Both the position numbers and the translations under genes were made by a program. The notes under the pieces are model-generated. The model worked only from the letters and a program-made list of their open reading frames with translations. It searched no databases and was not told where the DNA came from. From an archaeon (GTDB taxonomy: Archaea; Iainarchaeota; Iainarchaeia; Iainarchaeales; CSSED10-239), in assembly GCA_041677685.1 (NCBI GenBank), contig JBAYPN010000003.1, positions 13,506 through 45,505 on the forward strand: 32,000 nt of DNA, given 5' to 3'. This document shows positions 1 to 31,840 of this stretch, one piece after another (the stretch's first letter is position 1; each line of letters starts with the position of its first letter).

Positions 1-3000
1 AGAAACTGTACCATCTGCAGAGTTTGTTACACAAACTTCTCTAGATTTTATTTTTTCAAAAATATTATTAATTGATTTAATTTGAGATGCCTTGCCACTA
101 CTTCCAAAACTACTTGGGTCTAAAGAAACATCAATTCCATTTTGCTTTTGAACATTTATAGAATAATCTTTATTGTATGGTGTGTAAATTATTGATCTTA
201 AATAAACTTTGCCTTGGTAATTTACAATTGGCCATTCTAATTTATATCCGTTTTTAATTGGATCTCCTGCTAAGGTAATATGATCGAAGGTATTATTAAA
301 TGAAGAATATATGTCTTCTCCTGAAAGATCACAACCTTGTCCAACACCAGTCCATCTTGTAAATGTTTCTTCTCCATAAACAGCAGTATTATTAGAGTTA
401 TCCATTATCTTATAGTAGACTTCAAAAGGAGTAATCTTTGAGTTTTTTACAGACATTAAAACTGGAGTTGCAACACTTGGACTAAATATTAAATTAACAA
501 TATCTTCTGTAGATGTTATTTTTAAAATATTTCCTCTTGTTCCTACTTCTGAATTTATTTTAAAAATATTATCTACTGCTTCTATGTTTAAATATTTAAA
601 TGGATTTGAGCCTTTATCATAATAACTTCTTACTTGATCAACTTGTGAGGCATCTCCAATAATTATATCATCATTACCTGAATAAGCCAAACCATATCCT
701 TGTCTATTATATCCTGTGTCTGCATAACCTACAAGTCCATTAAATGGTAGTCTATAGAAAGCACTACTTGTTTCTGGTCCTTTAACATATGAGAAAGTAA
801 CAAAAGAATTTAGGTCTACTTTGTTATTGTTAACCATCTTCCAACCATCATTACCAAATATAAAGTCTATATCTATATCATAAAGTCCAGGTGTAAGAAT
901 GGTTACTTCTTCTTGATTTCCTGAATATTTTAAACTATAATTTAGATTATTTATAAACAATTTAGATAAGTACCCATCATCTGTCTGACCATTAAACATT
1001 CCTGGAGATGACATTAGAGCAAACTCTCCAACACCAGCACCACTATCAATAGATGCTTTTCCACCATAGGTTCTGTCGAAATCATTTTTGAAATTTATAT
1101 TATAATTATCAGTTATTAGCTTTGCTTTAAATTTAAGTAAATTTCTTAAAGTTGAAATGTCTTCTTGACTCCAACCATTACCCCCATTAACAGTCACATT
1201 TTCAGGATATTGGTTAGCATTAAACCACATGTCTATAAAGTCAATTCCATTATAAATTAAGGTCATTGCTGGAACTTTACAACCACTTGTTTCTGGAGCT
1301 TTATAATTTTCTAAAGTTATTTCTGTGGAGAAACTATTATACTCTGAATAGTTTCCTGTGTAGTTTAATGAAAGAGAAATGTTTTCATCTAATATCTTTT
1401 GAGTATTGGAACCAAATCTAAAGATTATGTCTGAAAAGTTATCTTCTCCAGATGGTGTTATTATATCATAACTATTTGCAATTGATTGCTCATCAAACTC
1501 TCCTGTTGAGTGATTATAAATTTCTACTTTTGTTGCAGGGTAATTTTCAAAAGTAGCAGTAACTGTTCCTGTTCTACTATCATTTGTTCTATTCTCTACA
1601 GACATATGCACAATAAACTGATTATCCTCAGTTCCAAATTTAACATCTGAGATTCCAACTTTTCCAAGAGGTATTTCATTTGTTACTCCATCTTCTTCTG
1701 CAACATATTGGTAAGTTCCTTCTAATGCTTCATCAGCAACTTGTTTATTGCTCTTTGGGCATTGAACATTTCTTTGCTCAATAAATTTTTTTGCTTTATC
1801 AATTCTATTTAAAATTACTTGAGTTAGTTGTGTTGCATCACAATAATTATCTTCACAATCATAAATATTATCTAAATCCCACTTCCAATCTAAGTTAACT
1901 TCAGGAACCGCACCTGGTCCAGTAAATCCAAGTTTATCTGAGTCTGTCATACAAGAATATACATTCAGATCAACATTTGGTTTTTCTTCAGTTTTTGGTA
2001 AATGGAATTCCACTCTATATTTTCCAATTCTTTGTGAGTCTTTAAAAGCTAAGTCTTGTTGACTTAAAGAATCATTTAAGGTTGGGTAGAAGTCGTATGT
2101 TTTATATTGACTTAATCTTGAACTATTCTTTATAACGTCATAAGCTGAATTATCAATAACAAAAGTAATTGGTTTGATTCCTGCTTGTTCAGGCCAAACA
2201 GTTTCATCTGAATTACATATTGAATAAATATTAAACTCTGCATTTACTTTCTTTCTAGGAATTGAACCATCACAATCTATTTTGAAATTTGTATAATCTT
2301 CATTTGATCCTGCTTCATCAACTCTTAAATTTGAACAAATACTAGTATTAATTATATCTAAAATATATTCTTGTTCTTCAACAACCGAATTTTGATAATT
2401 ACATTTTGGCACAACTACATTTAAAGTTTTATCTTCTGCTAACTTTCCTTTAATATTTACATATTTATTTAAATAAGTAGTATATCTTGCACCAGTAACA
2501 TCAAAAATATTTAGATATTCTTCCTCTAATTCATAATTATTTAAATTAATAACTTTTAATTGTTCAAAATCACTAAAGGTATATTCATCTGAGACATCTA
2601 AAATTCTATTTGATTCCTGAATATCATAATCAGATATAAAAATTGGAGTAACTAACATTGCAATTGCTGCAGTACCGGCAAGTATCCAACCAAATGGTGG
2701 CACTATACTACCTGTTACAATTATTGTTTTTAAACCAATTAATAATGCTACTGTAATAGTTGCTGCTGCTCCAGCCCCAATTGATGTTCCTAAATAACTT
2801 CCAAATCCAGGTCCATTAGCGTTAACCAAATTCTCTTTTTCATTAAATAACATCTTTGCAAAGATAGAAGAATCACTATCAAAGCCATCACTCATAAACT
2901 TAGAAAAACCATCTCCAGCTTTTTGAGTAGAATAATCCCAAGGTGTCTTTTTTAAATTATTATTATATAGTTTCTTTGTGGAAGTAACATAAGAATTATT

Positions 3001-10400: not shown

Positions 10401-10436
10401 CAACAAACTTATAAGTTTCATATTTTCTCTTTTCAT
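7407..10436 (-). CDS. Secreted 1009-aa protein; a free-standing copy of the C-module found fused in the neighbouring giants. Function unknown.
   Basis: ORF track. The ATG at 10436 has AAGGTG 7 nt upstream. The N-terminus MKRENMKLISLLFVFVIVVGVFSFGVYA/DG looks like a Sec signal peptide. It is followed by the Gly-rich hydrophobic stretch AGAINQGSSALDSLFNLFGTGINKLIGLNPIVHGLLGGAFSGF. Several blocks are shared with the 1-7317 ORF (YCDATQ, GPExxSxxYxxPFxGxVG, RQGYGL, WTGVG, EWP...YTP). Confidence 0.93.
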   Translation of the reverse strand: MKRENMKLISLLFVFVIVVGVFSFGVYADGDEETTQNTNILGNLTNTAGAINQGSSALDSLFNLFGTGINKLIGLNPIVHGLLGGAFSGFNTYKNLNKDIDFTVTKDKVNISEDERDYIDKDKFNSADYANYGDQLYEGRIQGVQREETTNNSRSINSSDGPYDTMVLTDKNVFDIEYIKTQPLSTLYEENTSPAFRLEKETTVQQLYNLDNNSVQGQKRGMLFEDPNKSIQNSYEYRYLVAKYKKAEYKGNINVSLKTSDLLDGEWLTFLLSPFSTGKNLLSLDKVSDNKKLNEEIRNARTVKDIYQIFHLQFNSWTNDENATLNYDQLDCFDESGLPIGTTGQETLPKVAFDWTFADKSNTSTAINGNQLDRVEWCDVNPNDKTKSGIYCDATQFSIEVLRKINEINKFVEQNKSQFICPQPGVNRPIITDVNNIGVSSLDSSYDGINKILVDYRVEGGFDVWAAPNQTIAQLEIKFNSTSKADPISNTVTLNIIADDIRIHGVFEGTEEFIVGYLPDSTDYEVTAKLINFVETIPNLKGDDELKNMFNTSAVECALDHTSQNIKLFSKKINPKFKDDVYVNFRSLLMYDGYSDDFRMDFDEYYRTQFMGVSNFYYNPTGNGDDLYKYFIHPDKFKFQIGFDEGKTLSGPGRYEVQVNIEYDDQWRLFDDAHNLVGDITIKLTKEIGPEMDSPVYYMPFDGVVGITTPNARQGYGLDYIGDVIDLDHEINMRSEPFTSSNTVNTLSVKEYGVRAEDFAIMNNNQTRGMILSINTDSAHRNPNLRFVPSRASPVVLKVGNQLNDAYAFYKLSIGNPENLGGVAAHPGQELTKWTGVGECNDFTGVPIQQMFLNKPDLLATNSQLAPHTPSQTYSYGVEWPEDIIIRKGNVFLRTIFYTPSNFTTGTGISQLYADSYSDDMMLYTYNGNQEISGKDIELKNVFGQSYDIKSLKQIYDLVAEKKACINYSATNLEVYYNPKAIIEKFFNNSMEYEEQNVWAESKGGCIKD

Positions 10437-10443
10437 TTTATTA

Positions 10444-10449
10444 CACCTT
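10444..10449 (-). promoter_or_regulatory. Shine-Dalgarno AAGGTG, 7 nt upstream of the ATG at 10436.
   Basis: The plus strand reads cacctt at 10444-10449. Confidence 0.6.
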
Positions 10450-14513: not shown

Positions 14514-15353
14514 TTAATTATTTACACAGCATTTTTGATACATTTCACCAGAAAAATTAGGTACATCACAATTTATTATTTCTATATTTAATTCTGTATT
14601 ATCTACATTTAACCAAAAAAGATTAACAAAATTATCCAATTCAATATTTGATTCACAACCATATCTTTTTGTACCATCTGAAGTTGTATACGGATATTTA
14701 TTTCTATATCCTTCTAAAAATAAGCTACAACATTCTTCAAAAACAATATGTCCTAAAGGAGAATTACAAGCATCAAAAGTTCCACCAACTACATTAGTAT
14801 CTAATTTACAAGCTCTTGCAAGATTATCATTTTGTCCACTACACATATAAGCGTAAGGATCACCTTGCATTCTTAAATTATAACCAATACAATTTTCTTG
14901 AGGTTGAAGAACTTCTAAAGGATATTCACAAGCAGAATCAGCAAGATATTCACAAACATTAGACACATCTAAATTTTGATTATTCAAACAATTTTGTTTA
15001 AAATTATTATAAGCTAAAATATCTGCATTTAAATCATTATAAGTTCTATTAATATCATCTAGTTTTTCATCAATTTCCTTAATCTTAACCATTTTTTCTT
15101 CTAATAAAGGATATATACATGACCCATCTGAACTTTTAAAACAAGCTAATATCTCTTCTAAAACAGGCATAACTTCATCATATAATACTACAAGTGATGT
15201 GTTATAAGAATCAATATCTTTATTTAAACTATCTTTATAATTTTCTAAACCCTCACAAGTATAAGTACCTTCTGAAAATAAAAAACCTAAATTTAAAATA
15301 CCTATAACTAAAATCATCAATAATGATAATAATATCTTATAATATCCTTTCAT
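14514..15353 (-). CDS. 279-aa secreted or anchored cysteine-rich protein (16 Cys, two CC doublets).
   Basis: ORF track. The ATG at 15353 has AGGT 7 nt upstream. The N-terminus is MKGYYKILLSLLMILVIGILNLGFLFSEG. By hand count there are 16 cysteines, including FEECCSLF and YQKCCVNN. Its stop lies 14 nt before the ATG of the next gene. Confidence 0.85.
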   Translation of the reverse strand: MKGYYKILLSLLMILVIGILNLGFLFSEGTYTCEGLENYKDSLNKDIDSYNTSLVVLYDEVMPVLEEILACFKSSDGSCIYPLLEEKMVKIKEIDEKLDDINRTYNDLNADILAYNNFKQNCLNNQNLDVSNVCEYLADSACEYPLEVLQPQENCIGYNLRMQGDPYAYMCSGQNDNLARACKLDTNVVGGTFDACNSPLGHIVFEECCSLFLEGYRNKYPYTTSDGTKRYGCESNIELDNFVNLFWLNVDNTELNIEIINCDVPNFSGEMYQKCCVNN

Positions 15354-15391: not shown

Positions 15392-18300
15392 CTATTCAAC
15401 TTCTGGTAACATTTGATTAGAAAGTTTTTTTGTTTGTTCAATCATATCCTTTACCATATTAATTACATTTTGATTATCAGTATCTGAGCCAGAAGATGCT
15501 ACCTCTTGCCCAGGAGAATTAGTATATAAAAACCTCATCTTAATAGGTGATGGAGCAGGAGTACTAATTCCTGCTAATTTATTATATCTTTTTAATTTCT
15601 CATTATACTGATTTATAAATGGAGTACATCCATTAATATTTTTCAACTCACCATTCTCATCAATACAACCATTATCTCTTAATTTTTGCAAAATATCATC
15701 CAACTCATCTAAAGCTTCTTGTAACTTCTTATCTTTACTCTTAAAGAGGTTAGATATAGCACTAGATTGTATCAAAGCAGAACCACCAGCAGTCATTAAA
15801 GCATCTCTTAGCCCTGACAAGAAAGCCATTCCAAGTCTGCTTGAGTTACTTAGCTTAGCTTGTCCTGTTATTTCTTGTTGATAACAAACATTAATTAAGT
15901 TAGCTGTATCATATGATTTTGCCTTAACCTCTAAACCTGTATTTTCAGAAGTCTCACTTCTAAACAGATCAAACTCATATCTATCTAAGTCTAAACAAGA
16001 ATCAATTGGTCTAACAATTACTTTTATTTTTCCAACGTTTCTTTCACTTCCTCTTCCATCTGCTAACTTAGAATACACATTTATTTGGTATTGTCCAGGT
16101 ATAGCATCATATGAGGTTACACTTATTTCATTACTTGATCCTGTTTCTGAAACATTAATTGCTTGTCTTGGTTGCATAACAATACCAGTACAGTCATCAC
16201 AAGATAGTCTGTAGGTAGTGTCTGCACCACAACCTTTATTTTCAATAACAAATGTATCTGGGTTCTTGTAAAGTGTTAAGACTTCTTTTGAAAAAAGTAC
16301 ACAATCTTTTAAACTTAAAACATCAATTGTAAAATTATATTCATTAATTATTTCTTGATCTCCAGAGCTTGTAGCATTTACAGATCTAAAGATTATTTTT
16401 CCAGAAATTTCTCCTTTCATCCTTGATGCAGGTTCATATCTTACAATCACTGGATAACCTGTGTCTCTATCAAAGGCATCTAATACTCTTTTATAGTAAC
16501 CATGTGAAAGCTCAACACTTCTACTTCCAACACTTAAATAAAACTTTCCTAAAGGACTACTTGTAAACTCAACTTTTGCTTCAAGTCCACCAGTTAAAGG
16601 CACAGTTCTTTCATTCATTGTACAAGTATTATTTATTGTAAATTGTTTTTCAATAGGTTTTTCTTGAGCTACTGCTGTCCAATCATACTCAGACAAAGTC
16701 AAACAACTTGAGTCATCTAACATTCCATCAAAACCAACAACAACATTTACTGGAATTTCATTTATCCAAACTGGTGAATCTCCAAGTTCTGATCTTAAGG
16801 ATATTCTTAATCTCCCAGAAAGATTTTGAACTTCTCTAATTCCTTCAGCTCTTGGATTAATATTTAAAGTTATTTGTATATTTTTAGAAGCATCATCGTT
16901 GTTTGGAAAATCATTAATTGTGTCTAGACCTTTGATAGTTGTTCCAGAGTAACCAACCAACTGAGCATTAATTCTATCAACATCAATAATATCTAAACCT
17001 TCTCCAAGAAGTTCCATTGATTCTATTTCTAAGTCAAGAGATGAAATATTATTAATGGTTATACTTTCTGTTTTTGATTTTTCATTATAAACATTTAAAG
17101 TGTATGATAATTTCTTTGGAGTTATTGTAAACAACTTATCAGTTGTTGTAATCTCTTGAATATATGTCTCATACTCAGGAGCAGTAACATACACATAGAT
17201 CTTTTCATTTGCACCTTGTTGAGGGATACCATCTACTGTTATTTCTCCTAACTTCCCTACTTCTCTAGGATTAATAAGATTATCTAAAAATCTATCCTTA
17301 ATGTTAACAATTGAGTCATCTACTTCTAAACCTGTTTGGTTATCTTTGACATTAACTAGTAAACTAAAGTCTTTTCCTGCAGGAATAACCATTGGCTTAA
17401 CAGTAACTTTAAAGGTCTTGTCAGATAGAACATTAATAATTATTTCTTTTACAAATTGTATTTGTTGATCAGAAACAAATTTAATTACTAAATGTCTTTC
17501 TCCTGTCAACAATGTTCCAAATTCGATATCTCCTTCTACCTTTTGTTTAGAGGCAAGAGAAGAAATTGCATAATCAAATTCATAATCTCCTGCTTGTGGA
17601 GTTACATTATAGATATTTCCATTTGGTTGAGATATTAAAATCTTTGTAAAATTAAATCCTTCATCTTTATTTTCTATTAATAATCTTGAGTCTATATATT
17701 TTTTATTTTCTTGATTATTAACTAACATAAAATGTAATTTATAATCTTTATTTGGGTAAGCTTCATAGATGTCACTAACATCTGCTCTCAAGTCATTTGT
17801 AACATCAACAATGTTTGCACTAAAACAAAAATCATCAGTACAAAAAATTTCATCTCCAATTCCATAGCTAACAACACTGTAAACATCAAAGTATTCCACA
17901 ACATCTTCAGTCCCAGTATATGGGTTATATGTCTCAATACCGTTGTCTGTTTGCCCATAACCCAAATAATACATCTTTAGTTCTTCTCCAAAGACAGCAA
18001 TATCTTTTACTTTTATGGTTGCTGTTATCTCATAAGCATTCAAATATTCTAAAGATTCATCATTATCATAATTTGTTTCTTTAAAAATTACTTTTGCCCA
18101 TTTAGCATCAGAGTCTGTTTCAGTTTCACTATCTCCAATTCCATCAACCTCATAAGGTTCACTCATGTCAGTATCAAATTGTGTGTATTTTTTAATAGAG
18201 AAAGCATTTGGAACTTCAATAGACTTAATATATAAAGAATCATTCTCTAAATAAACTGTTGAACCAGTTCTAATAATTGCTCCAACACTCTCAAATCTGT

Positions 18301-20263
18301 CATCTCCACTTCTATTCTGTGGGACTAACATAGTATATCTAGCTTCATATTCCCCATCCATCTTTAAGTTACCATTAACTTGCTCTTGTCCTTTATAAAG
18401 TCCATTAAACACAAGCTGTGGCTTTTGTAAAGCTGAGGTGATAGGGTATAAGGTTACTTCTAAGTTTTTAGTTATTCCTGGAACCACTCTAACATACTGT
18501 GATTGAGTAGCACCATACATGTTATTTAAAGGATCAGAGATAACCACATAATAATCATTATCTGCATCTAATTCAAATTCAATTTCTCCATTTGCATTTG
18601 CAAGATCACTCTTAATGGTTGCTGGAGAAGTGCTATTCCAAACAGCACTATAAGAGTCATAAACATTAACTCTAGCATTAGGTATTATTTCTTTATTATT
18701 ATTATAAACATTTATTTTTAAATTACCCTTACTAATAACCATTGGAATAATTATAGTCTCGTAGGTTTCTGCCATTCTTACATCAAACACAAAATCAGAA
18801 GATTGGCCTTGTGAGCTTCCTTTGATTGCAACAGCATAATAATTTCCAGAAGTTATGTTAAAGGAAACATTTCCATCAAAGTTTGTAGTCTTTGGTTTAT
18901 AGTCTGTTAAAAATCCATTATCTGCATTAAATAATGCAACTTTTGCAAACTTATAACCTCTTCCATAATCATCAACAACTCTAATGTTTAATGGTTTTAG
19001 GCTATTAGGTGTTACTTCTGATATCTTAACTAACACTGGGGTTGTTGGAATTTCTGTTTGTGGTTCTACAAGTTGTGATTTTATAAAATAACCTTCCACA
19101 TCAACAACTACTCTGTAAGGTAAACTTAGATCTGAAACTGTAAATAAGATGATTCCATTTTCATCAGTGTACTTTTCTGTAATCAAAGAATCAACATTTT
19201 TTAGTGCAACATAAGCATCTGGTATTTTAACACCGTTGTCATTATCTACAACTTTTATTTTTATATAACCAGAAATATCACTTGACATTACTATTGTGTC
19301 TGTCTTATTATCAGAAAGTAAGATATTTCTAATAACAGTATTGTAGATTGGAACTGCTCTATTGTCCACAAAGTTAACAGCATAGTTTCCAGCAGCAAGA
19401 TTATTTAAAACACAAGTTCCTCCTGTGTTAGTTACACATTCTCCTGCAATAAGTCCAAAGTCATTTTTAGCAATAACTTTTATGTTTTCTATAGGGTTGC
19501 CTGAGGAATTTTTTGTAAAAACAGTATAATTAAATTCTCCACCCTCAAACCCAATTTCTTTTTCTTGCAAATAGATGGTTACTCCTTGGGTGATAAGTTC
19601 ATCATAAGCAGTATTATAACCATTAATTGTAATTGTAGCTTTTAGTTCACATTGTGAGCTTGCAACAACTGTCCCTAGACCGTTTATAATTTCAATTGAA
19701 GAAGGTGCAATTCCTCCTTGTGCACAGGTAAAGCTTGCAACTCCATTTTTATTTATTTGAACTCCTGATTGGTCAGCTACCTTAAAGTTATAAGTTACCA
19801 TGCTTTCTTGTAATTGAGGTTCTAAGGCAATAATTATTACTTCGTTATTTTCAAAGGAGAAATATGCTTTTGAGAATTTTATGTATCCTCCAATTTCATA
19901 ATCAATATCAATAATAAATTCAGAGTCTTTTAAAATACCTACTTGAGAGGTAATTCCTGAATCATCTGTAATCTCATTATAGGTGTTGTCAGAGGTTGTA
20001 ATTTGTATAGGTATTCCTGGTAAAACATTTCCTGACTCTGCATCAATTACTTTAAAGCTAACTTGGTTATAGTCAGAGCCAGTTTTCCCTCCTGAAAAAA
20101 TCAACAACAGGATTCCTGCAATAATAATTATAATTAATAAAATGACTAAAATAAAAGAAGGCATAACCTTATCTATTCTATCTGTAATTTTATATAATCC
20201 TGTTTTTTCCACAAAATTATAATATCTATCTTCAAGATTGTAATATAGCTTTCTAAGACCCAT
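15392..20263 (-). CDS. 1623-aa N-terminally anchored giant surface protein (leader motif, TM, CarboxypepD_reg-like repeats, Cys-bracketed Ig-like segments). It lacks the C-module.
   Basis: ORF track. The ATG at 20263 has GAGGA 7 nt upstream. The N-terminus is MGLRKLYYNLEDRYYNFVEKTGLYKITDRIDKVMPSFILVILLIIIIIAGILLLIF. Repeats include IKIKVVDNDNGVKIPDAYVALKN...TDENGIILF and LNIRVVDDYGRGYKFAKVALFN, which fit the known CarboxypepD_reg pattern (V.V.D..G.P...A.V.....T...G...F). Confidence 0.95.
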   Translation of the reverse strand: MGLRKLYYNLEDRYYNFVEKTGLYKITDRIDKVMPSFILVILLIIIIIAGILLLIFSGGKTGSDYNQVSFKVIDAESGNVLPGIPIQITTSDNTYNEITDDSGITSQVGILKDSEFIIDIDYEIGGYIKFSKAYFSFENNEVIIIALEPQLQESMVTYNFKVADQSGVQINKNGVASFTCAQGGIAPSSIEIINGLGTVVASSQCELKATITINGYNTAYDELITQGVTIYLQEKEIGFEGGEFNYTVFTKNSSGNPIENIKVIAKNDFGLIAGECVTNTGGTCVLNNLAAGNYAVNFVDNRAVPIYNTVIRNILLSDNKTDTIVMSSDISGYIKIKVVDNDNGVKIPDAYVALKNVDSLITEKYTDENGIILFTVSDLSLPYRVVVDVEGYFIKSQLVEPQTEIPTTPVLVKISEVTPNSLKPLNIRVVDDYGRGYKFAKVALFNADNGFLTDYKPKTTNFDGNVSFNITSGNYYAVAIKGSSQGQSSDFVFDVRMAETYETIIIPMVISKGNLKINVYNNNKEIIPNARVNVYDSYSAVWNSTSPATIKSDLANANGEIEFELDADNDYYVVISDPLNNMYGATQSQYVRVVPGITKNLEVTLYPITSALQKPQLVFNGLYKGQEQVNGNLKMDGEYEARYTMLVPQNRSGDDRFESVGAIIRTGSTVYLENDSLYIKSIEVPNAFSIKKYTQFDTDMSEPYEVDGIGDSETETDSDAKWAKVIFKETNYDNDESLEYLNAYEITATIKVKDIAVFGEELKMYYLGYGQTDNGIETYNPYTGTEDVVEYFDVYSVVSYGIGDEIFCTDDFCFSANIVDVTNDLRADVSDIYEAYPNKDYKLHFMLVNNQENKKYIDSRLLIENKDEGFNFTKILISQPNGNIYNVTPQAGDYEFDYAISSLASKQKVEGDIEFGTLLTGERHLVIKFVSDQQIQFVKEIIINVLSDKTFKVTVKPMVIPAGKDFSLLVNVKDNQTGLEVDDSIVNIKDRFLDNLINPREVGKLGEITVDGIPQQGANEKIYVYVTAPEYETYIQEITTTDKLFTITPKKLSYTLNVYNEKSKTESITINNISSLDLEIESMELLGEGLDIIDVDRINAQLVGYSGTTIKGLDTINDFPNNDDASKNIQITLNINPRAEGIREVQNLSGRLRISLRSELGDSPVWINEIPVNVVVGFDGMLDDSSCLTLSEYDWTAVAQEKPIEKQFTINNTCTMNERTVPLTGGLEAKVEFTSSPLGKFYLSVGSRSVELSHGYYKRVLDAFDRDTGYPVIVRYEPASRMKGEISGKIIFRSVNATSSGDQEIINEYNFTIDVLSLKDCVLFSKEVLTLYKNPDTFVIENKGCGADTTYRLSCDDCTGIVMQPRQAINVSETGSSNEISVTSYDAIPGQYQINVYSKLADGRGSERNVGKIKVIVRPIDSCLDLDRYEFDLFRSETSENTGLEVKAKSYDTANLINVCYQQEITGQAKLSNSSRLGMAFLSGLRDALMTAGGSALIQSSAISNLFKSKDKKLQEALDELDDILQKLRDNGCIDENGELKNINGCTPFINQYNEKLKRYNKLAGISTPAPSPIKMRFLYTNSPGQEVASSGSDTDNQNVINMVKDMIEQTKKLSNQMLPEVE

Positions 20264-20296: not shown

Positions 20297-20328
20297 TTTT
20301 CTTATTTTCTTATTTTCTTATTTTCTTA
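20297..20328 (-). repeat. Four perfect tandem copies of the 8-mer TAAGAAAA (plus strand TTTTCTTA), with a degenerate fifth unit extending to about 20335.
   Basis: Read directly from the sequence: 20297-20304, 20305-20312, 20313-20320 and 20321-20328 are all ttttctta. The array lies in the 122-nt gap between the 2342-aa and 1623-aa genes. Confidence 0.9.
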
Positions 20329-20385
20329 TTTTTTATTAATCAATTAATTTTAATTACTTTATGTTTTAATTTTATTTGTCTAATT

Positions 20386-23300
20386 TCATTTCACATAATT
20401 TAACCAAAAGTTAATTTTTGTTTGGTCAGTTTTAAAACACACATTATCTTCTTTTATTCCGTTTACCAAATCTTTAACCAATTTATAATTATATTTTTTT
20501 AGATAATCTGACATATCCTTTTCAATATTGTAAATGTACACCCCGTTATTTGTGTTTAACTTAGGATCATACTCAACAAAGTTAATATAGTCACTAGCTT
20601 TAAATTGTAGTTGATAATCAATTTCTTTTTTTCCTTGTGTATAATTGTTAGAAACAAAGACTACTTTTTTATTATAATTTTCTTTAAAGTTGTTTTCATT
20701 TCTAATAAGGTTGTAGCTTAGTGTTTGGTTCTTAATAACCAATGGTTTTATATTAAAATATTCTATGGTTGGTTTATCTTTGTTTTCTTTTCCTTCCAAG
20801 CTTAAGATATAACCTTCTTGCATCTTTTCCCAATTACTTTCATAGTAATCTTGGTTTGGAACAACAGCAACAAATGGAACTAAATATTTATTTTTATTTG
20901 GATTAATTGGATTAAAGAATAATGCATTTTCTTTATATTTAGAGTCAATTTCTGAAACATAACTTAAGATTTTTAGTTTTACTTTATTATCCTCCAATAG
21001 TTCAGCACTAACCATGTATGTTCCAGGTTTGTCAATATCTGTAATCTCAGAACTTAAGTCTAGCTCATATGAATATTTCGTTAAGAATTTTTGCTCCATC
21101 AATCCTTTATTATATGTATTTTTTAAGTCTCCAAACTTCTTTATCTTCACATCAAATTGATTTAAACCATTACCTAAACCAACATCTAATGTTGAAAATA
21201 TTTGCTTTAGATGTTCTTCATCATTATTTGTATCTAATAGACTATCTATAATTAAAAGGTATTCATTTAAGGTAAAGTAGATCTTAGTTCCTGATTTATA
21301 ATAATTAGTTGTAATTTCAGTTTTTATAAATTCTTCAAAAGCACTATCATCCTCATGTTTAACAGAGATTATTGCTAACATCTTAAATTCATCAGGTATC
21401 TTTTTTAACAATTTCACAGACACATCAATATAACCATCAAGAATACTTTCAGATTTTAAGGTTTTTCTTGCTTTTTGACAAGCACTACAATCAATCTCAG
21501 AAATAACCTCTGTATTTAGTTTAATTTCACCAAGCAAATCTTTCTCAAATTTAATGCCGCCTAATGTTACATTGTCTCCACTATTTAGGGAGATGGCATC
21601 CATCTTCTTTCCAATTGATAAATACAGTTGTTCTTGATCACAATAGTAATCATTACAAGTGTCTGTAGTAATCTCATCACTATCCCAAGAGAACAATAGT
21701 TTATCAAAACCATATTTCTTGTAATTACTTTGAGAAGTGTAACCATAGTCAGATTTAGTTCCATCAGGACTTTTACAGGTATTTTCAAAATCAATTAAAA
21801 TTTTATCAATTATCTTATCCTTCTCTTCTTCCCCATTGTCTTGAGTGTCTGTAACTAAACCTAATTTTTCTGCACCTAAGTTAGCAATCACTCCAATCTT
21901 TGTTGCTCCAAGTCTATTTGAGGAATTATCTTCTAAAGTTTCCATAATTGTAAATTGATTTTTGAACAGATCATAGACTGTAGATTCAATTTTTGTTAAT
22001 TCCTTTGTTGGTCTTTTAAAGCAAAGCTTAAAGTAATATTTTTCAACAAAGTCAATACTTACTTCTACAGGCCCCTCATTATTAAAGAACATTGATTTTT
22101 CTGAAGAAGGAATGTATGCTGCTTTTGAGGAGATCCCCTCAATTGGGAATTGATTAATTCTCCCCATAAAACATTTCTCTGAAGAGTCCTTTAAATCAAG
22201 AACATTAAATTTATCTTTAGTCAAATATTTGTCTGGAACTTTTATAAAGACTACAGGCCCATCTTTTGTAATTTCTAAAAGATATTCAAGCTCTGCATTT
22301 GTGTCTACAAACTTTAAAGTTTCTTTTGAAAATTTACTATAATCAATTTCTCCACCATAGATTCCAAACACATTTGCATTTTCTTTATTTATTAGACCTA
22401 ACCATTGTAGATTATCAATTAACTCCATACCCACATTATTAAACAAAGGCATACTCTGTGTCTTAGGTGGTTGCAACTTAATCTGTAACATAAACTTCAA
22501 AGAAACTGATTCTCCAAAATCAAAACCAAGGGTTCTTAGGCTAGAAACAATTGTTACTGCATCTATGTTTCCAGTTCTAGACTTATATTTATTTAAATAA
22601 TCATCAAGATACATTCTCTGTATTTCAGGATTTCTTTTTAAAGCAATTGACCAAGTCTCATAGATCTCTCCTGTCTGTGTGTTCTGAGTATCATAACTTA
22701 CTTTTAAAGGCTCAATTCTTCCTAAGTTTTCTGAAATATCTAAAAAGGTTACTCCATCAATTGATAAAGCATTTAGATCTAAATAGCTTATTTCTAATAG
22801 TCTATAGCCTTTAGAAAAACAAGTGTTTATTATTTTAACTTCCTCATAACCTGTTACTTTGGTAGAGAAATCTATTTTTTGAGGAGTTACTCTTATACAT
22901 TGAGATGGCATATAGCTTAGAGGTAAACTCACATCAACAGCCACATCTTTAACAAACTCATAATCTCCATCAATATCACTTGTTGGTTTTGCAGAGACTG
23001 AAAGATTAAAAGTTCCCATCTCATCATAACCAAAAACTCCAATTGTTTCTTTCTGTCCTTTCTCTAAGGTAAACTCTTTATGTTTAGAATCAACACCAAC
23101 TCCATAACCATCACTAAATTTAATGTCCACAGACTCAGAACAACTGTTCTCTATAAAGATTGGTCTTTGTGGACAGCCCATAAGGTTAGTCATCCCCATC
23201 TGTCCAACAAATGGTGAAGTTTCTAAGAAATTATAATTTTCATAACCATAAGCATTGTTTAAACCAACTCCATTATTGTAGAAGTTGTTAGGATATTGTT

Positions 23301-26300
23301 GCCCATATAAGGTTGTAAGGTTAGAGCCAACATAACCATTGTATGCTCCACCATCATAGAAGTTAGGAGAACCCATACCATTGTATGATTGGTTAAAGTA
23401 ACCTGCTCCATAATTATAATTATTGTTTGGAGAGAAATATCTATTCATGTTAAAGCCTTGAGCATATGAATTTCCAAAGTTACTATAGATTCTTGGATCT
23501 TGATATCTGTTGATATTTCCACCATAATAGTTATTGTACATCCCCTGTCCACCATACATGTTACATGCAAGAACAGCAACTCTCTCTTCAGGTAACTTTA
23601 AACATTTACTATAATTGTTAATTATTGTTTGTAAAGATAAGGTAGCCTCTAGCTCATCAACTCCATTTTGATTAACCCTAGTTGTTGAGAAGACAATCTT
23701 TGGAGACCTTAATGCAGAATCAATTTCTGCGGCTTTAAAGGTAACTTTCAAATCTACTTTCTTTTTAGCATCTATTGTTTGTAAGATTTCTGTTAAAGAA
23801 TTTCCTTCTAAGATATATTCTTTATTATTTACATATAAAGAAATAACTCCAACTTCCTTTTGGTTCTGTAGATCTAAATTTGCATATAGTTTCCCTAAGC
23901 TTACAGCTGTTCCTGAAACCTTACAGTTGTTCTGAAGTGTAAAGCTTGCTTCTGCTTGTTTACCGTTTGTTGTTCTTAACTCCAAACTAACAGGATCAAG
24001 TAACAAACAATCAACTGAGTCTAAAGCATTTCCAAACACAACTCTGATGTTAATAGGAATTTTCACAGTCCAAAACTTGTTTAGAGCAGAGCTATTTAAA
24101 GTAACTAACAAGTTTGTAACAATATTTTGTTGAACCTCAAGATTAATACCTTCTTCTGTTAGTGATGTCTTTAAAGAGATGTTTACCTGCTCTAAAGAGT
24201 CTATAAGGTTTTCTTGAGAAGTCACACTAAGATTAATAAAATCATTTTTATTTTCTAGGCTTAGGTTGGTAATTGCCAAAGGCAAAGCAGTATTATTAAT
24301 AAGACTAAAATTATTAATATTTACAAGTTCTTTAGAAAGATCAAGAACAACATCTACTTTTTCAGGAACTACAGATATCAGGTTGTTTGTGATTTCAAAG
24401 ACTTGCTCAATTCTCTTATAACCATTCTTTCTAACAATAACAGTTACAGAATCCCCTAAGTCCAATGCTGGCAAAATAAAACCATACAATCCTTTTTGGT
24501 CAGTAACAACTCCACTCTCAATTGTTTGCTCATTATTAATTTTAATAATAACATCTGCATTTGAGATTGGAACATTACCATCATCAGTCACAGCAATGAT
24601 TGTGTCATTTGGAACAAAAGGTGCAAAGGTTCTAGGCACAATCTCTAAGTTCATGGTCTTTGATTTTACAATGTCTAAAAGTATTGTTTTTGTAAATACA
24701 ATTTCTCCATCTGAAAGTAGATTAAAAGTAATTACATCTTCAGCATCAGAAACAATATTAAAATTAATAACTCCACTAATGTGGTCATTTGTTCCAAGTG
24801 GGCCTAACTCTATAGAGTCAAAGTTCTCTCCTTTTAAAAGATTAGAACCAACAGCATCTATTGAGTAGTCTTTTAGTAAAACACTTGAACCTGTAGTTAT
24901 ATTTAAAGTTGCATTCTGTAAGGCTTTACTTGCAATATTTAAATTGAATGAAAATTTATGAGAGGTGTTTGCTTGTGCTGAATATTTGTCAATTATGTTT
25001 TTTGTTAGTTTTGTATTCTCATTAAATATTGAGAAATTATAACAAAGTATAGAATCACAAAAATTAGATTGACCAGTAAATATTTGAGTCTCTTTTGTGT
25101 AAGCATATAAAGATTGTTTAGTTGAGGTTAATAATCCAGTCCCTAACTTAGAATCAATTGGGTATCTTAAAACAGAGTTGCCTTGTTTAAACTCAGCCCT
25201 GTAGAACAAAGGAAGAGTTCCAACAGCATCATTTCCAATTACCAAGTCTGCATCTACTAAGTAGGTTCCTTGGTAAGGGTTGTCTATAACAACATTAAAC
25301 CATTTTGCATCTCTATTAGTTTTTATTTTCAGATCTGTAAGTTCTCCAAGGCAAGGAGTATAGCTGGTTGACCCATAGATCTTGTTTCCTGCAAAATCAA
25401 TTTTCTTAATATAAATTGAGTCTTGTTCCATAAGGTTTGTTTGATTATCACATTGATTTCCTTTTCCTGTTCTTATGTGTGCAACAACTTGTGAATAATT
25501 GTTATTTACATTTACTAAAAATCTTGCCTTTACACTTTGACCAGGACTAACACTTGAGACAATCTCTCCCTTATTATCAAAAAGTCCTAAAAATTCAATG
25601 TTTGAGGAACTACTAACCTTTGGTAAAACTATGTTAACATTATTTACAGTGTTTGCTTCTACCCCATACTTGGTTGTGAAAAATTTACTTTCATAATTAT
25701 CAATTACAAAGTAAACAACTTTGTCAGCTCTAACTCTTACTAAAGTATTTCCTTCGGTGTCTGTTAGGCTTCTTTTTCCTGAAATCTCAAGATTATTAAA
25801 AGTATCATAAATTGAAACATTTGTTGAAATTGGGTCCCCAAATTCATCTCTAACATTTACATTAAAAGTTCCTTCTCCAATGCTCATCTTTAAGATCTGC
25901 TCATTAACCTCTCTTTCAAAGATCATAAATGGATTTGAGATTCCTGAAGAGAACTTTCCTTTAACAGCCTCTAACCTATATGATTTTTTTGGATCTAAAT
26001 TTGTAATTACAGCTTTTCCATAAACATCAGCAACTGTTGTTTTTAGAACAGTATTATTTTCAGAGTCAAGTAGTTTTATGTCAGCAAACTCAACTGGTTT
26101 TGAGAAGTCATCAACAACAGTTATTAACAGTCCTCTAATTGTTTCTAGATTAATTATGTCTAATCTAATTGTTTGAACATTTTCACTTTTTCGTAAATTA
26201 TTTTCAACTCTAAAAGTATAATTTGCATTATCAAAAGTAACCTTATAAGAAATATTTTCTTCTAAACCAAAAGTAACCAAACCTTGTTCATCAGTCATTT

Positions 26301-27414
26301 GAGAAACAATTTCTTGCTCTCCTTTAAACAAAGTACATTTTACATTTTTGATAGCTTCACTATTATCAGAATCAATTACTTTTAATTTTAGTAAACCAAT
26401 TATTTTCTTTTCTAATTTAATTTCTTTAGATTCAATCTGTCCTGAGACTATGGTTACTGATTCTCCATCAGTTACAACTAGTTCTCCGTAAGTGTGATTT
26501 TGGTCATAAGCAGAAATAAAATATTGTCCAACATTTAAGTTATTAAACTCTACAATTCCGTTGGTGTTTGTTGTTGCTGTTTCTGCCTTTATGCCATTAG
26601 CATTAGTTAAAGTAACAACAATGTTTGACACAGGGGTAGCTATGTCTTTGTCTTTTACAATAATTGTTACTGATCCTTTTTCTGTTTCAATTTCATCACT
26701 TAAAGAGATCTCTCCAACCTTAGAGCTATCATCAATTTCTAGATCTGAATAGTTTGGGGTATAAAATTGAAAGGTAGGTATTAGTTCTCCACAATCTAAA
26801 GGAACATCTTGAACAATCAACACCCCATCAATTATTGGAATGTTTGTTAGAGGTTGAAAACTTGAATCTTCATTTGAACATCTTAATTCATCAAGTAGAA
26901 GATATTCTGTTAACTGCTCTCCATCTCTTATAAATATTATTTTTTTGTCAACAGTTGTTCTTTTATCTTTTAGATAGATTGTAAAGTTAGAGGCGTCTGA
27001 AAAATTTAATTCAAGGGGTTTTTCTAATTCATATTTATTTGAATTTATTTTTAAAGAATAAAGAGTGTCTTTGTTAAGTCCACTAACCTTTGCAATTCCT
27101 AACTCATCAGTTGTAAATAGTTTTTCTGTTCCTGAAAAGGAAAGAGTAATTGTTTGGTTTGTTATGGGTTTGTTTGTAGAATCTACAAAAGTCAAATATG
27201 AGTTTTTTGAAATCACTGTATGATTTGAAAAAATCATAAAAGCTAAAAGAACTATTACACCTAAAATTATTAAACTAAAAATCGCAAAAGTCCTTATTCC
27301 TCTTCTTTCTAGAGGGTCAATTATTTTATATAAATTAATTCCTTTTCTGTCTAGCTTGTCTAAGAAATTAAAATATCTGTCTTCTAACTTTTGGTAAAAA
27401 GATTTTAAACTCAT
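20386..27414 (-). CDS. 2342-aa N-terminally anchored giant surface protein (leader motif, TM, CarboxypepD_reg-like repeats, N/Y/G-rich low-complexity insert, diverged C-module).
   Basis: ORF track. The ATG is at 27412-27414. The N-terminus is MSLKSFYQKLEDRYFNFLDKLDRKGINLYKIIDPLERRGIRTFAIFSLIILGVIVLLAFMIF. Repeats include LKLKVIDSDNSEAIKNVKCTLFKGEQEIVSQMTDEQGLVTF and VTDQKGLYGFILPALDLGDSVTVIVRKNGYK. The C-terminal part carries TCNDYYCDQEQ, KPGTYMVSAEL and EDNVCFKTD, which match the C-module signature. Confidence 0.95.
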   Translation of the reverse strand: MSLKSFYQKLEDRYFNFLDKLDRKGINLYKIIDPLERRGIRTFAIFSLIILGVIVLLAFMIFSNHTVISKNSYLTFVDSTNKPITNQTITLSFSGTEKLFTTDELGIAKVSGLNKDTLYSLKINSNKYELEKPLELNFSDASNFTIYLKDKRTTVDKKIIFIRDGEQLTEYLLLDELRCSNEDSSFQPLTNIPIIDGVLIVQDVPLDCGELIPTFQFYTPNYSDLEIDDSSKVGEISLSDEIETEKGSVTIIVKDKDIATPVSNIVVTLTNANGIKAETATTNTNGIVEFNNLNVGQYFISAYDQNHTYGELVVTDGESVTIVSGQIESKEIKLEKKIIGLLKLKVIDSDNSEAIKNVKCTLFKGEQEIVSQMTDEQGLVTFGLEENISYKVTFDNANYTFRVENNLRKSENVQTIRLDIINLETIRGLLITVVDDFSKPVEFADIKLLDSENNTVLKTTVADVYGKAVITNLDPKKSYRLEAVKGKFSSGISNPFMIFEREVNEQILKMSIGEGTFNVNVRDEFGDPISTNVSIYDTFNNLEISGKRSLTDTEGNTLVRVRADKVVYFVIDNYESKFFTTKYGVEANTVNNVNIVLPKVSSSSNIEFLGLFDNKGEIVSSVSPGQSVKARFLVNVNNNYSQVVAHIRTGKGNQCDNQTNLMEQDSIYIKKIDFAGNKIYGSTSYTPCLGELTDLKIKTNRDAKWFNVVIDNPYQGTYLVDADLVIGNDAVGTLPLFYRAEFKQGNSVLRYPIDSKLGTGLLTSTKQSLYAYTKETQIFTGQSNFCDSILCYNFSIFNENTKLTKNIIDKYSAQANTSHKFSFNLNIASKALQNATLNITTGSSVLLKDYSIDAVGSNLLKGENFDSIELGPLGTNDHISGVINFNIVSDAEDVITFNLLSDGEIVFTKTILLDIVKSKTMNLEIVPRTFAPFVPNDTIIAVTDDGNVPISNADVIIKINNEQTIESGVVTDQKGLYGFILPALDLGDSVTVIVRKNGYKRIEQVFEITNNLISVVPEKVDVVLDLSKELVNINNFSLINNTALPLAITNLSLENKNDFINLSVTSQENLIDSLEQVNISLKTSLTEEGINLEVQQNIVTNLLVTLNSSALNKFWTVKIPINIRVVFGNALDSVDCLLLDPVSLELRTTNGKQAEASFTLQNNCKVSGTAVSLGKLYANLDLQNQKEVGVISLYVNNKEYILEGNSLTEILQTIDAKKKVDLKVTFKAAEIDSALRSPKIVFSTTRVNQNGVDELEATLSLQTIINNYSKCLKLPEERVAVLACNMYGGQGMYNNYYGGNINRYQDPRIYSNFGNSYAQGFNMNRYFSPNNNYNYGAGYFNQSYNGMGSPNFYDGGAYNGYVGSNLTTLYGQQYPNNFYNNGVGLNNAYGYENYNFLETSPFVGQMGMTNLMGCPQRPIFIENSCSESVDIKFSDGYGVGVDSKHKEFTLEKGQKETIGVFGYDEMGTFNLSVSAKPTSDIDGDYEFVKDVAVDVSLPLSYMPSQCIRVTPQKIDFSTKVTGYEEVKIINTCFSKGYRLLEISYLDLNALSIDGVTFLDISENLGRIEPLKVSYDTQNTQTGEIYETWSIALKRNPEIQRMYLDDYLNKYKSRTGNIDAVTIVSSLRTLGFDFGESVSLKFMLQIKLQPPKTQSMPLFNNVGMELIDNLQWLGLINKENANVFGIYGGEIDYSKFSKETLKFVDTNAELEYLLEITKDGPVVFIKVPDKYLTKDKFNVLDLKDSSEKCFMGRINQFPIEGISSKAAYIPSSEKSMFFNNEGPVEVSIDFVEKYYFKLCFKRPTKELTKIESTVYDLFKNQFTIMETLEDNSSNRLGATKIGVIANLGAEKLGLVTDTQDNGEEEKDKIIDKILIDFENTCKSPDGTKSDYGYTSQSNYKKYGFDKLLFSWDSDEITTDTCNDYYCDQEQLYLSIGKKMDAISLNSGDNVTLGGIKFEKDLLGEIKLNTEVISEIDCSACQKARKTLKSESILDGYIDVSVKLLKKIPDEFKMLAIISVKHEDDSAFEEFIKTEITTNYYKSGTKIYFTLNEYLLIIDSLLDTNNDEEHLKQIFSTLDVGLGNGLNQFDVKIKKFGDLKNTYNKGLMEQKFLTKYSYELDLSSEITDIDKPGTYMVSAELLEDNKVKLKILSYVSEIDSKYKENALFFNPINPNKNKYLVPFVAVVPNQDYYESNWEKMQEGYILSLEGKENKDKPTIEYFNIKPLVIKNQTLSYNLIRNENNFKENYNKKVVFVSNNYTQGKKEIDYQLQFKASDYINFVEYDPKLNTNNGVYIYNIEKDMSDYLKKYNYKLVKDLVNGIKEDNVCFKTDQTKINFWLNYVK
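23173..23565 (-). other. Asn/Tyr/Gly-rich low-complexity segment bracketed by two Cys, within the 2342-aa protein (residues about 1284-1414).
   Basis: The ORF-track translation reads C-NMYGGQGMYNNYYGGNINRYQDPRIYSNFGNSYAQGFNMNRYF...VGQMGMTNLMG-C. By hand count the 129 internal residues include N 27, Y 21 and G 22, and only 7 are charged. Confidence 0.85.
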
Positions 27415-31818: not shown

Positions 31819-31840
31819 AAATATATATATTAATAACACC

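Follow-up and report, generated by a model that had tools for sequence, protein, structure and literature searches.

A probable split of the middle gene in a row of giant, predicted surface-protein genes of an Iainarchaeota archaeon

The stretch of DNA analysed here, hereafter the window, comprises 32,000 nucleotides (nt) from an archaeon of the Iainarchaeota (lineage CSSED10-239; assembly GCA_041677685.1, contig JBAYPN010000003.1, positions 13,506 to 45,505 of the forward strand). All eight long open reading frames (ORFs) of the window lie on the minus strand, and six of them, A to F, make up a row of genes for giant, predicted extracellular proteins and the genes between them. The middle giant of this row appears to be represented by two separate genes, E and B. 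The genes of the row, with protein lengths in amino acids (aa), are the following.

20386-27414, minus strand: gene F, 2342 aa; giant, first gene of the row
15392-20263, minus strand: gene E, 1623 aa; N-half of the split middle giant
14514-15353, minus strand: gene D, 279 aa
10522-14499, minus strand: gene C, 1325 aa, counted from the ATG
7407-10436, minus strand: gene B, 1009 aa; free-standing C-half of the split middle giant
1-7317, minus strand: gene A, 2439 aa inside the window; fused N-module and C-module, third giant of the row

The G+C content is ~30% throughout the window, except for 20-25% over C and D. Gene A is cut by the window edge and has lost its last 26 aa; the complete protein, P0023, has 2465 aa and is 99.4% identical. 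The parts recognised in the giants are listed below.

1-2022, minus strand: C-module of A, aa 1766-2439 (hhalign against the B family, E=8e-47; BLASTP, E=5e-26)
2626-2796, minus strand: central Gly/Ala-rich hydrophobic region of A, aa 1508-1564 (Kyte-Doolittle scan)
3121-7314, minus strand: N-module of A, aa 2-1399 (hhalign against E 9-1396, E=1e-59)
7153-7221, minus strand: N-terminal membrane anchor of A, aa 33-55 (hydropathy)
7410-9512, minus strand: C-module of B, aa 309-1009
9513-10136, minus strand: head region of B, aa 101-308; conservation limited to the B family (alignment)
10137-10331, minus strand: segment 2 of B, aa 36-100; Gly-rich half of the central hinge
10353-10436, minus strand: Sec-type signal peptide of B, aa 1-28, ending in GVYA before DG (sequence and hydropathy)
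~10442-10445: ribosome-binding site of B, GGTG
15395-15727, minus strand: hypervariable tail of E, aa 1513-1623
15728-15841, minus strand: segment 1 of E, aa 1475-1512; amphipathic, Gly/Ala-rich, conserved among E orthologues
within E: N-module, aa 9-1396, with the anchor at aa 34-58; no C-module
within F: N-module, aa 1-1273
20389-21804, minus strand: diverged, shorter C-module of F, aa ~1871-2342 (profile hits, hidden Markov model hits, transitive homology)

The preliminary description of this DNA had proposed a Rosetta-stone pattern, the two modules being present at one locus both as single chains and as separate genes, and this was borne out by a fused orthologue of the pair. P0025, a 2586-aa fused giant from another Iainarchaeota metagenome-assembled genome (MAG), matched E and then B, and at the same position of the row. 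The alignment of P0025 with E covered ~1585 residues (28% identity, E=1e-157) and stopped at E 1513 and P0025 1504, and residues 292-1007 of B were matched with 30% identity (E=7e-73). The profile match with B began at B ~45, corresponding to P0025 1686, and B altogether covered P0025 1686-2554. The neighbours of P0025 on its contig were a gene with an F-like end and a gene with an A-like start (27% identity, E=7e-46). Also A was matched by E and B in non-overlapping parts, 2-1399 and 1766-2430, respectively.

Across 95 giants, P0025 was the top match of E and the joint top match of B. A neighbour-joining tree of 148 C-modules grouped the 20 free-standing B proteins into one clade, the successive sisters of which were a 760-aa fragment and then P0025, its closest relative of full length, with all of these nested among fused giants; the A-type C-modules formed a separate clade. 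The idea that B is a copy of the end of the adjacent A was thus not sustained, as the B module grouped with the P0025-type giants. The BLAST scores across the 95 giants agreed with the tree topology in that those of the E N-module and the B C-module were correlated (Spearman 0.48, p=8e-7), and the scores of E were anti-correlated with those of the A C-module (-0.63), as were those of B with A (-0.34).

Related loci had the gene order F-like, E-like (1603-1867 aa), B-like (962-1023 aa) and A-like (2426-2505 aa), the order of E and B being found in twelve loci (L001-L008, L010-L012 and L014). One of these, L008, belongs to Ca. Forterrea multitransposorum (CP045477), in which the row is F, E, B, A. 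In at least eight related genomes B came next to E in the same orientation, with a spacer of 25-83 nt and with B identities down to ~37%. Every B orthologue had an ATG with a GGTG ribosome-binding site, and its signal peptide carried small residues in positions -3 and -1. The relative reading frame of E and B was not kept among the related loci, and a conserved read-through or frameshift over the spacer was rejected, since only about half of the genomes have B in frame with E. The gene order of the window was seen again in an independent assembly of this organism. The ratio of nonsynonymous to synonymous substitutions (dN/dS; Nei-Gojobori) was roughly 0.21-0.42 for both E and B, and both have been under purifying selection after the split.

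Based on the P0025 alignment, the row position, the tree and the score correlations, E and B together are considered to be the split middle giant. The event is read as a fission, since fused forms of all three paralogue types exist elsewhere and the split proteins make up a small clade nested among fused ones. The sequence features of a Rosetta-stone pair or a gene fission were all present: the two genes match distinct segments of one chain, the composite is syntenic, and both genes are intact, co-occurring and under selection.

The homology of A and B, and its extent, were assessed separately. The peptides quoted in the preliminary description were all found in their places, and the five pairs drawn from A and B were collinear. 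In BLASTP with composition-based statistics, A 2061-2434 matched B 583-970 (30% identity, E=5e-26) and A 1767-1855 matched B 310-423 (E=2e-7), so the similarity outlasted the correction for composition. With profiles built from orthologues, a single alignment of 588 columns joined B 309-966 and A 1766-2430 (E=8e-47). A and B are old paralogues, with 25-30% identity. A shared module of ~930 residues had been claimed; because the profile alignment spans these limits, the firmly supported module is ~660 aa long, and for the remaining ~260 residues the support was weak. It came through the Gly-rich hydrophobic segment, with B 44-92 matching A 1504-1546 at an hhalign E-value of 0.42, and from a hidden Markov model (HMM) of the B head, which matched the equivalent place of fused giants with E-values of 5e-5, 3e-4, 2e-3 and 0.014 (reversed controls at least 0.77).

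A family profile consisting of B, its relatives and the C-terminus of A was searched against 1.84 billion proteins. The search found 636 matching cluster representatives, 383 of them at E≤1e-30. Among the 150 matches listed, most were proteins of 2300-2700 aa with the C-module at the very C-terminus, and only about ten were full-length B-type proteins. A scan of one genome per species gave 187 genomic stretches with a C-module, all from archaeal MAGs, and where a taxon was named, nearly all were Iainarchaeum/Diapherotrites (DPANN), with a few bins otherwise labelled. The taxa included Ca. Forterrea multitransposorum, AR10 and Ca. Iainarchaeum andersonii. The ORFs carrying the C-module were 2056-3008 aa long in most loci and 962-977 aa in seven loci. 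Typical Iainarchaeota giants were also seen in bins labelled Chloroflexi, Thaumarchaeota or Micrarchaeota (L030, L038, L044 and L055), and these are probably mis-binned contigs or loose taxonomic labels.

Rows of three giants, namely an F-type, a middle and a third one, each with a C-module, were found across the phylum (AR10, Ca. Iainarchaeum andersonii and others), and the three-giant row, judging from the loci compared, appears to be phylum-wide in Iainarchaeota. An N-terminal membrane helix was present in 93 of 96 giants, and in 49 of the 96 a second membrane-like hydrophobic stretch lay ~120-240 aa ahead of the C-module. The C-module was the most conserved part of the giants, with ~25 invariant residues across 48-85 sequences. 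In B the conserved residues include the cysteines 332, 378, 392, 421, 557, 840 and 965, and its motifs are YCDATQF, DGYSxDF, PFDGxVG and RQGYG. An AlphaFold2 model of B 300-1009 from a 48-sequence alignment reached a predicted local distance difference test score (pLDDT) of 88.6 and a predicted template modelling score (pTM) of 0.80, and consisted of a long helix between conserved cysteines, an immunoglobulin-like (Ig-like) sandwich and further beta-rich domains. Foldseek found no whole-fold match for this model in the PDB and BFVD (TM ≤0.15), and sequence searches of the PDB gave no match. The model of full-length B from 12 sequences was poor (pLDDT 52.5), and its Foldseek matches were generic Ig/FN3 sandwiches. 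B contained nothing recognised by Pfam or NCBIfam, leaving the C-module outside all families of these two databases, and the giant family was not described in the literature searched.

The N-modules of A, E and F were homologous to each other (A 2-1399 and E 9-1396, E=1e-59; A and F, E=2e-31; F and E, E=5e-49). Pfam recognised only Ig-like sandwiches, and these in the N-modules: CarboxypepD_reg (cut-off 32.3 bits) scored 73.8 bits in A, 49.4 in E and 90.5 in F, and SpaA (cut-off 23.1) 34.8, 31.4 and 42.1 bits, respectively, and Big_1 (cut-off 34.9) was above the cut-off in E (37.6) and F (36.6) and below it in A (30.9). The 1623-aa protein E had been said to lack the C-module, and none was detected (hhalign E=0.59, with an HMM score equal to that of reversed controls). 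Also the diverged C-module suspected at the end of F was recovered, as three collinear profile matches at the three motifs named earlier: F 1880-1957 with B 332-420 (E=1.6e-6), F 2127-2171 with B 649-702 (E=0.009) and F 2311-2342 with B 950-981 (E=5e-4). F-type giants of other genomes matched both the F of the window (for instance the giant upstream in L043 with F 1895-2144, E=1e-10) and the C-module HMM (E=7e-53 to 1e-8), and the homology of the F C-terminus is thereby established transitively. A database search with the C-terminal part of F itself gave no match. At the place of the hydrophobic hinge of A, F has a G/Y/N-rich low-complexity stretch at aa ~1285-1400 (23215-23562, minus strand), with ...YNNYYGGNINRY...NYNYGAGYFNQSYNG..., and a similar, G/Y/S-rich stretch is present in the F-type giant of AR10.

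The break lies in the central hinge of the middle giant. In A segments 1 and 2 abut and form a hydrophobic hairpin, the region at aa 1508-1564 looking like two membrane helices in the Kyte-Doolittle scan, and in P0025 they are parted by an acidic low-complexity linker and a small domain. Since the part of E that aligns with P0025 ends with segment 1 and mature B starts with segment 2, the break is placed in the variable linker between the hinge halves. The E orthologues were conserved up to segment 1 (E 1475-1512) and divergent beyond it, with tails of ~90-340 aa that differed in content: short helices, a 340-aa helical stretch, GDAGA repeats, acidic repeats or a Cys-knob. In four loci (L002, L004, L010 and L011) the G+C content at third codon positions (GC3) was lower in the last 240 codons of E than elsewhere in the gene, with 0.108 against 0.161 in L002 and 0.054 against 0.106 in L010 as examples, and an exchange of the tail, or a turnover apart from that of the gene body, is suggested by this.

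Breaks in other loci were also inspected. Short C-module ORFs in L018, L026 and L028 were rejected as independent fissions, as they were due to runs of N in Gly-rich low-complexity sequence. In an Iainarchaeum MAG (L076, 4335-11986) the middle giant was broken within the N-module into ORFs of 1340 and 1210 aa, which overlapped by 4 nt (TTGA) with no run of N, the cause being a genuine frameshift or split or else a mistake in the assembly.

Genes C and D, which stand between E and B in the window, had been suggested as possible participants in the cooperation of E and B, and this was not upheld: they are not conserved partners of E and B, being missing from all related loci and different in composition. 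C had no homologue in any fetched locus and no detectable relatives, D had none in these loci except for its Cys-knob, and a search of 5.8 billion proteins with D found only D itself. Their GC3 was 0.086 and 0.082, respectively, compared to 0.16-0.21 in the neighbouring genes, and values of 0.08-0.09 are typical for Forterrea-like relatives; C and D were possibly acquired from a relative of lower G+C content. C is secreted and helix-rich, with L, N, K, S and I as abundant residues. D is secreted and Cys-rich, shares its N-terminal ~90 aa with C (BLASTP E=1e-5), and contains one further feature.

14724-15044, minus strand: Cys-knob of D, aa 104-210

This part of D was homologous to the C-terminal Cys-knob of the long E orthologue in L007 (BLASTP, 37% identity, E=6e-10), the pair scoring 53.5 bits compared to 15.4 ± 3.0 bits for shuffles. 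C and D were found in the same order in the independent assembly of this organism. From their distribution they are taken as insertions specific to this lineage, and they look like variable E-tail cassettes turned into separate genes. Two other secreted-protein genes stood between B and A both in L009 (3510-8290; 947 and 638 aa) and in L011 (12976-19411; 1490 and 634 aa), and lineage-specific insertions seem to be tolerated at several junctions of the row.

The reading that we prefer, with a probability of roughly 80%, is that the middle giant underwent fission at the hinge linker and that its halves E and B come together again on the cell surface. Each ancestral giant had a short cytoplasmic N-terminus with one membrane anchor, an Ig-like N-module of ~1400 aa, a Gly/Ala-rich hydrophobic hinge and a disulfide-rich C-module of ~700-900 aa. 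The middle gene was split in the clade of Ca. Forterrea and this organism, in the variable linker between the hinge halves. E retained hinge segment 1 together with the anchor and the N-module, and has a tail that evolves fast. B, with hinge segment 2, the head and the C-module, gained an ATG with a ribosome-binding site and a cleavable Sec signal of its own, and would be exported by itself. E could then recapture B non-covalently, via the hinge segments or the E tail and the B head, and E-bound B would restore the single-chain architecture of F and A at the cell surface. C and D would have been inserted later into the variable E-tail region, D corresponding to a free-standing Cys-knob of longer E orthologues. 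The reassembly of E and B at the cell surface is plausible. Because B is without any other anchor, it would stay attached to the cell through binding to E. The signal peptide of B and eight conserved cysteines predict an extracellular position for the C-module, and such a position fits the even number of hinge helices in A.

Several results weigh against this reading. The match of segment 2 of B to the hinge of the fused giants was weak (best E=5e-5), and aa 101-308 of B had no significant counterpart in them by the B-head HMM. The tree was midpoint-rooted and without bootstrap values, and the dN/dS values are rough because dS was near saturation. E and B are 5 kb apart in the window owing to C and D, and tight coupling is therefore not required. 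The adjacency of E and B could merely be inherited from the fission, and their binding is a prediction from sequence. The main rival explanation, which we consider improbable, is that B has turned into an independent secreted factor, soluble or bound elsewhere, leaving E as a headless stalk with no physical cooperation between the two. The signal peptide of B with its good cleavage site, the lack of another anchor, the hypervariable E tails with no conserved docking element past segment 1, and the position of C and D between the genes in the window would all suit such a history. It accounts less well for the finding that E and B are still adjacent and co-oriented in at least eight genomes diverged down to ~37% B identity, that they have similar dN/dS, and that each retains its own half of the hinge.

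The other explanations concern the origin of the split and are far less probable. That B adjoins A and is 25-30% identical to its C-module could indicate that B is a partial duplicate of the 3' end of A and E a mere truncated giant, but the B module groups with P0025-type and not A-type giants, the similarity profiles of B and A are anti-correlated (-0.34), P0025 occupies the position of E and B, and hinge segment 2 of B matches P0025-type giants; we regard this origin as very unlikely. No more credit can be given to an ancestral split with the fused giants arising by repeated fusion, which the merely midpoint-rooted tree would allow: fused giants of all three paralogue types occur across the phylum, the clade of split forms is small and lies nested, and many independent fusions would be needed instead of one fission. 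Least probable is that the split is an assembly or sequencing artefact, or that E and B are decaying halves of a pseudogene. The apparent breaks in the same region in L018, L026 and L028 did prove to be runs of N, but the split of E and B was found in more than ten independent assemblies, each with a clean spacer, ribosome-binding site, ATG and signal peptide, the relative frame of the two is not conserved, and both ORFs are intact with dN/dS of 0.2-0.4.

The domain-fusion or Rosetta-stone method was reportedly introduced by Marcotte et al. and Enright et al. in 1999. As in such pairs, the neighbouring genes E and B match separate parts of one chain, and the composite occurs as an orthologue in the same neighbourhood elsewhere and as paralogues in the own genome. 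Unlike in them, E and B are predicted extracellular halves of a ~2600-aa surface protein, and the acquisition of a signal peptide was needed for B. In itself, a gene fission that leaves a Rosetta-stone signature is an ordinary, textbook process. The value of the present case is that it defines the modules and the topology of an uncharacterised, phylum-wide family of giant proteins, on three paralogues of which Iainarchaeota spend ~22 kb although their genomes are of only ~1 Mb. The natural split marks a domain boundary and, through the Sec signal on B, indicates a topology in which the C-module is predicted to be extracellular. It also provides B as a 1009-aa protein that can be expressed for structural and binding work instead of a 2500-aa membrane protein, and yields the specific prediction that E binds B.

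[quoted passage not shown] The two systems are alike in being extracellular, with Ig-like or repeat stalks and tandem genes, but the A. kunkeei giants are anchored by a signal peptide and an SH3b-like wall-binding end (PMC12863079) and the Iainarchaeota giants by an N-terminal membrane helix. The C-module had no similarity to DUF5776 or SH3b, and no sequence relation to the A. kunkeei giants was found. For Ca. Forterrea multitransposorum, large extracellular proteins have been predicted by its authors to mediate interaction with other organisms (PMC5905446), and the available part of that paper describes no family, module structure or split (PMC5905446). Probable roles of the family are the building of the envelope or contacts to partner cells.

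With bacterial Ig-like adhesins and alpha-2-macroglobulin-like (A2M-like) proteins the giants share beta-sandwich domains, which in the N-modules exceeded the Pfam cut-offs. An identity as alpha-2-macroglobulins was rejected, as the thioester motif C[GLAS]EQ was absent from all proteins of the window and no A2M-specific domain was present; the matches to MG-like sandwiches (bMG3, MG4) were generic and overlapped CarboxypepD_reg, and Invasin_D3 remained below the Pfam cut-off. A layout of the type of polymorphic toxins or contact-dependent inhibition (CDI) was likewise rejected, because the C-module is the most conserved part of the giants; there is also no small gene after F or after E and B, and the ~120-aa gene found after A in relatives encodes a product with a signal peptide. 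SPEARE proteins of Nanohaloarchaeota are giant proteins that unite a serine protease domain with domains for adhesion and a restriction endonuclease, and this identity was rejected, no protease or endonuclease domain being found in A, B, E or F with Pfam and NCBIfam. Solved surface-layer proteins gave no sequence or fold match.

A wider proposal is that the three-giant row is an undescribed, phylum-wide apparatus for the envelope or for partner contact, in which the C-module of ~700 aa would be a new fold and an autonomous unit docking non-covalently, the hinge would be re-entrant in the membrane, and the cassettes of C, D and the E tails would tune specificity. We put this forward tentatively, and as doubtful in its entirety. 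If it were true, the split of E and B together with the signal peptide of B would place the C-module outside the cell beside the re-entrant membrane hinge.

Some further observations concern the surroundings of the giants. In relatives, A was followed by a conserved gene for a ~120-126-aa secreted protein (20264-20641 in L001, 20733-21095 in L002) and then by one for a ~715-816-aa secreted protein; the corresponding place would lie past the left edge of the window, and both genes may be members of this cluster of surface proteins. Between F and E, the spacer of 122 nt contained a tandem repeat, TTTTCTTA, in 5.2 copies with 97% matches at 20297-20337. An Rfam scan of the window gave no match. 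Upstream of F there are two further genes.

29476-31839, minus strand: gene H, 787 aa
27594-29351, minus strand: gene G, 585 aa

H, separated from F by G, has a membrane helix at its N-terminus and a metalloprotease domain of the M6 family (immune inhibitor A-like; TIGR03296, 116.9 bits with a cut-off of 110.8, E=1.5e-33). G begins with MFLKNKIIYKNQKGFNLFTALVSLMLISITLVLIF, which resembles a type IV pilin (class III) signal; the resemblance is weak, with the ComGF pilin model at E=0.027 and no Pfam hit. Finally, a conserved cytoplasmic motif of ~35 aa preceded the membrane anchor in E (20164-20263), F (27289-27414), A (7222-7317) and most other giants. It belongs to no Pfam family, has the consensus M..K..Y...E..YY..LD......P.......ID...PSF, for example MGLRKLYYNLEDRYYNFVEKTGLYKITDRIDKVMPSF, and could be a sorting or docking signal.

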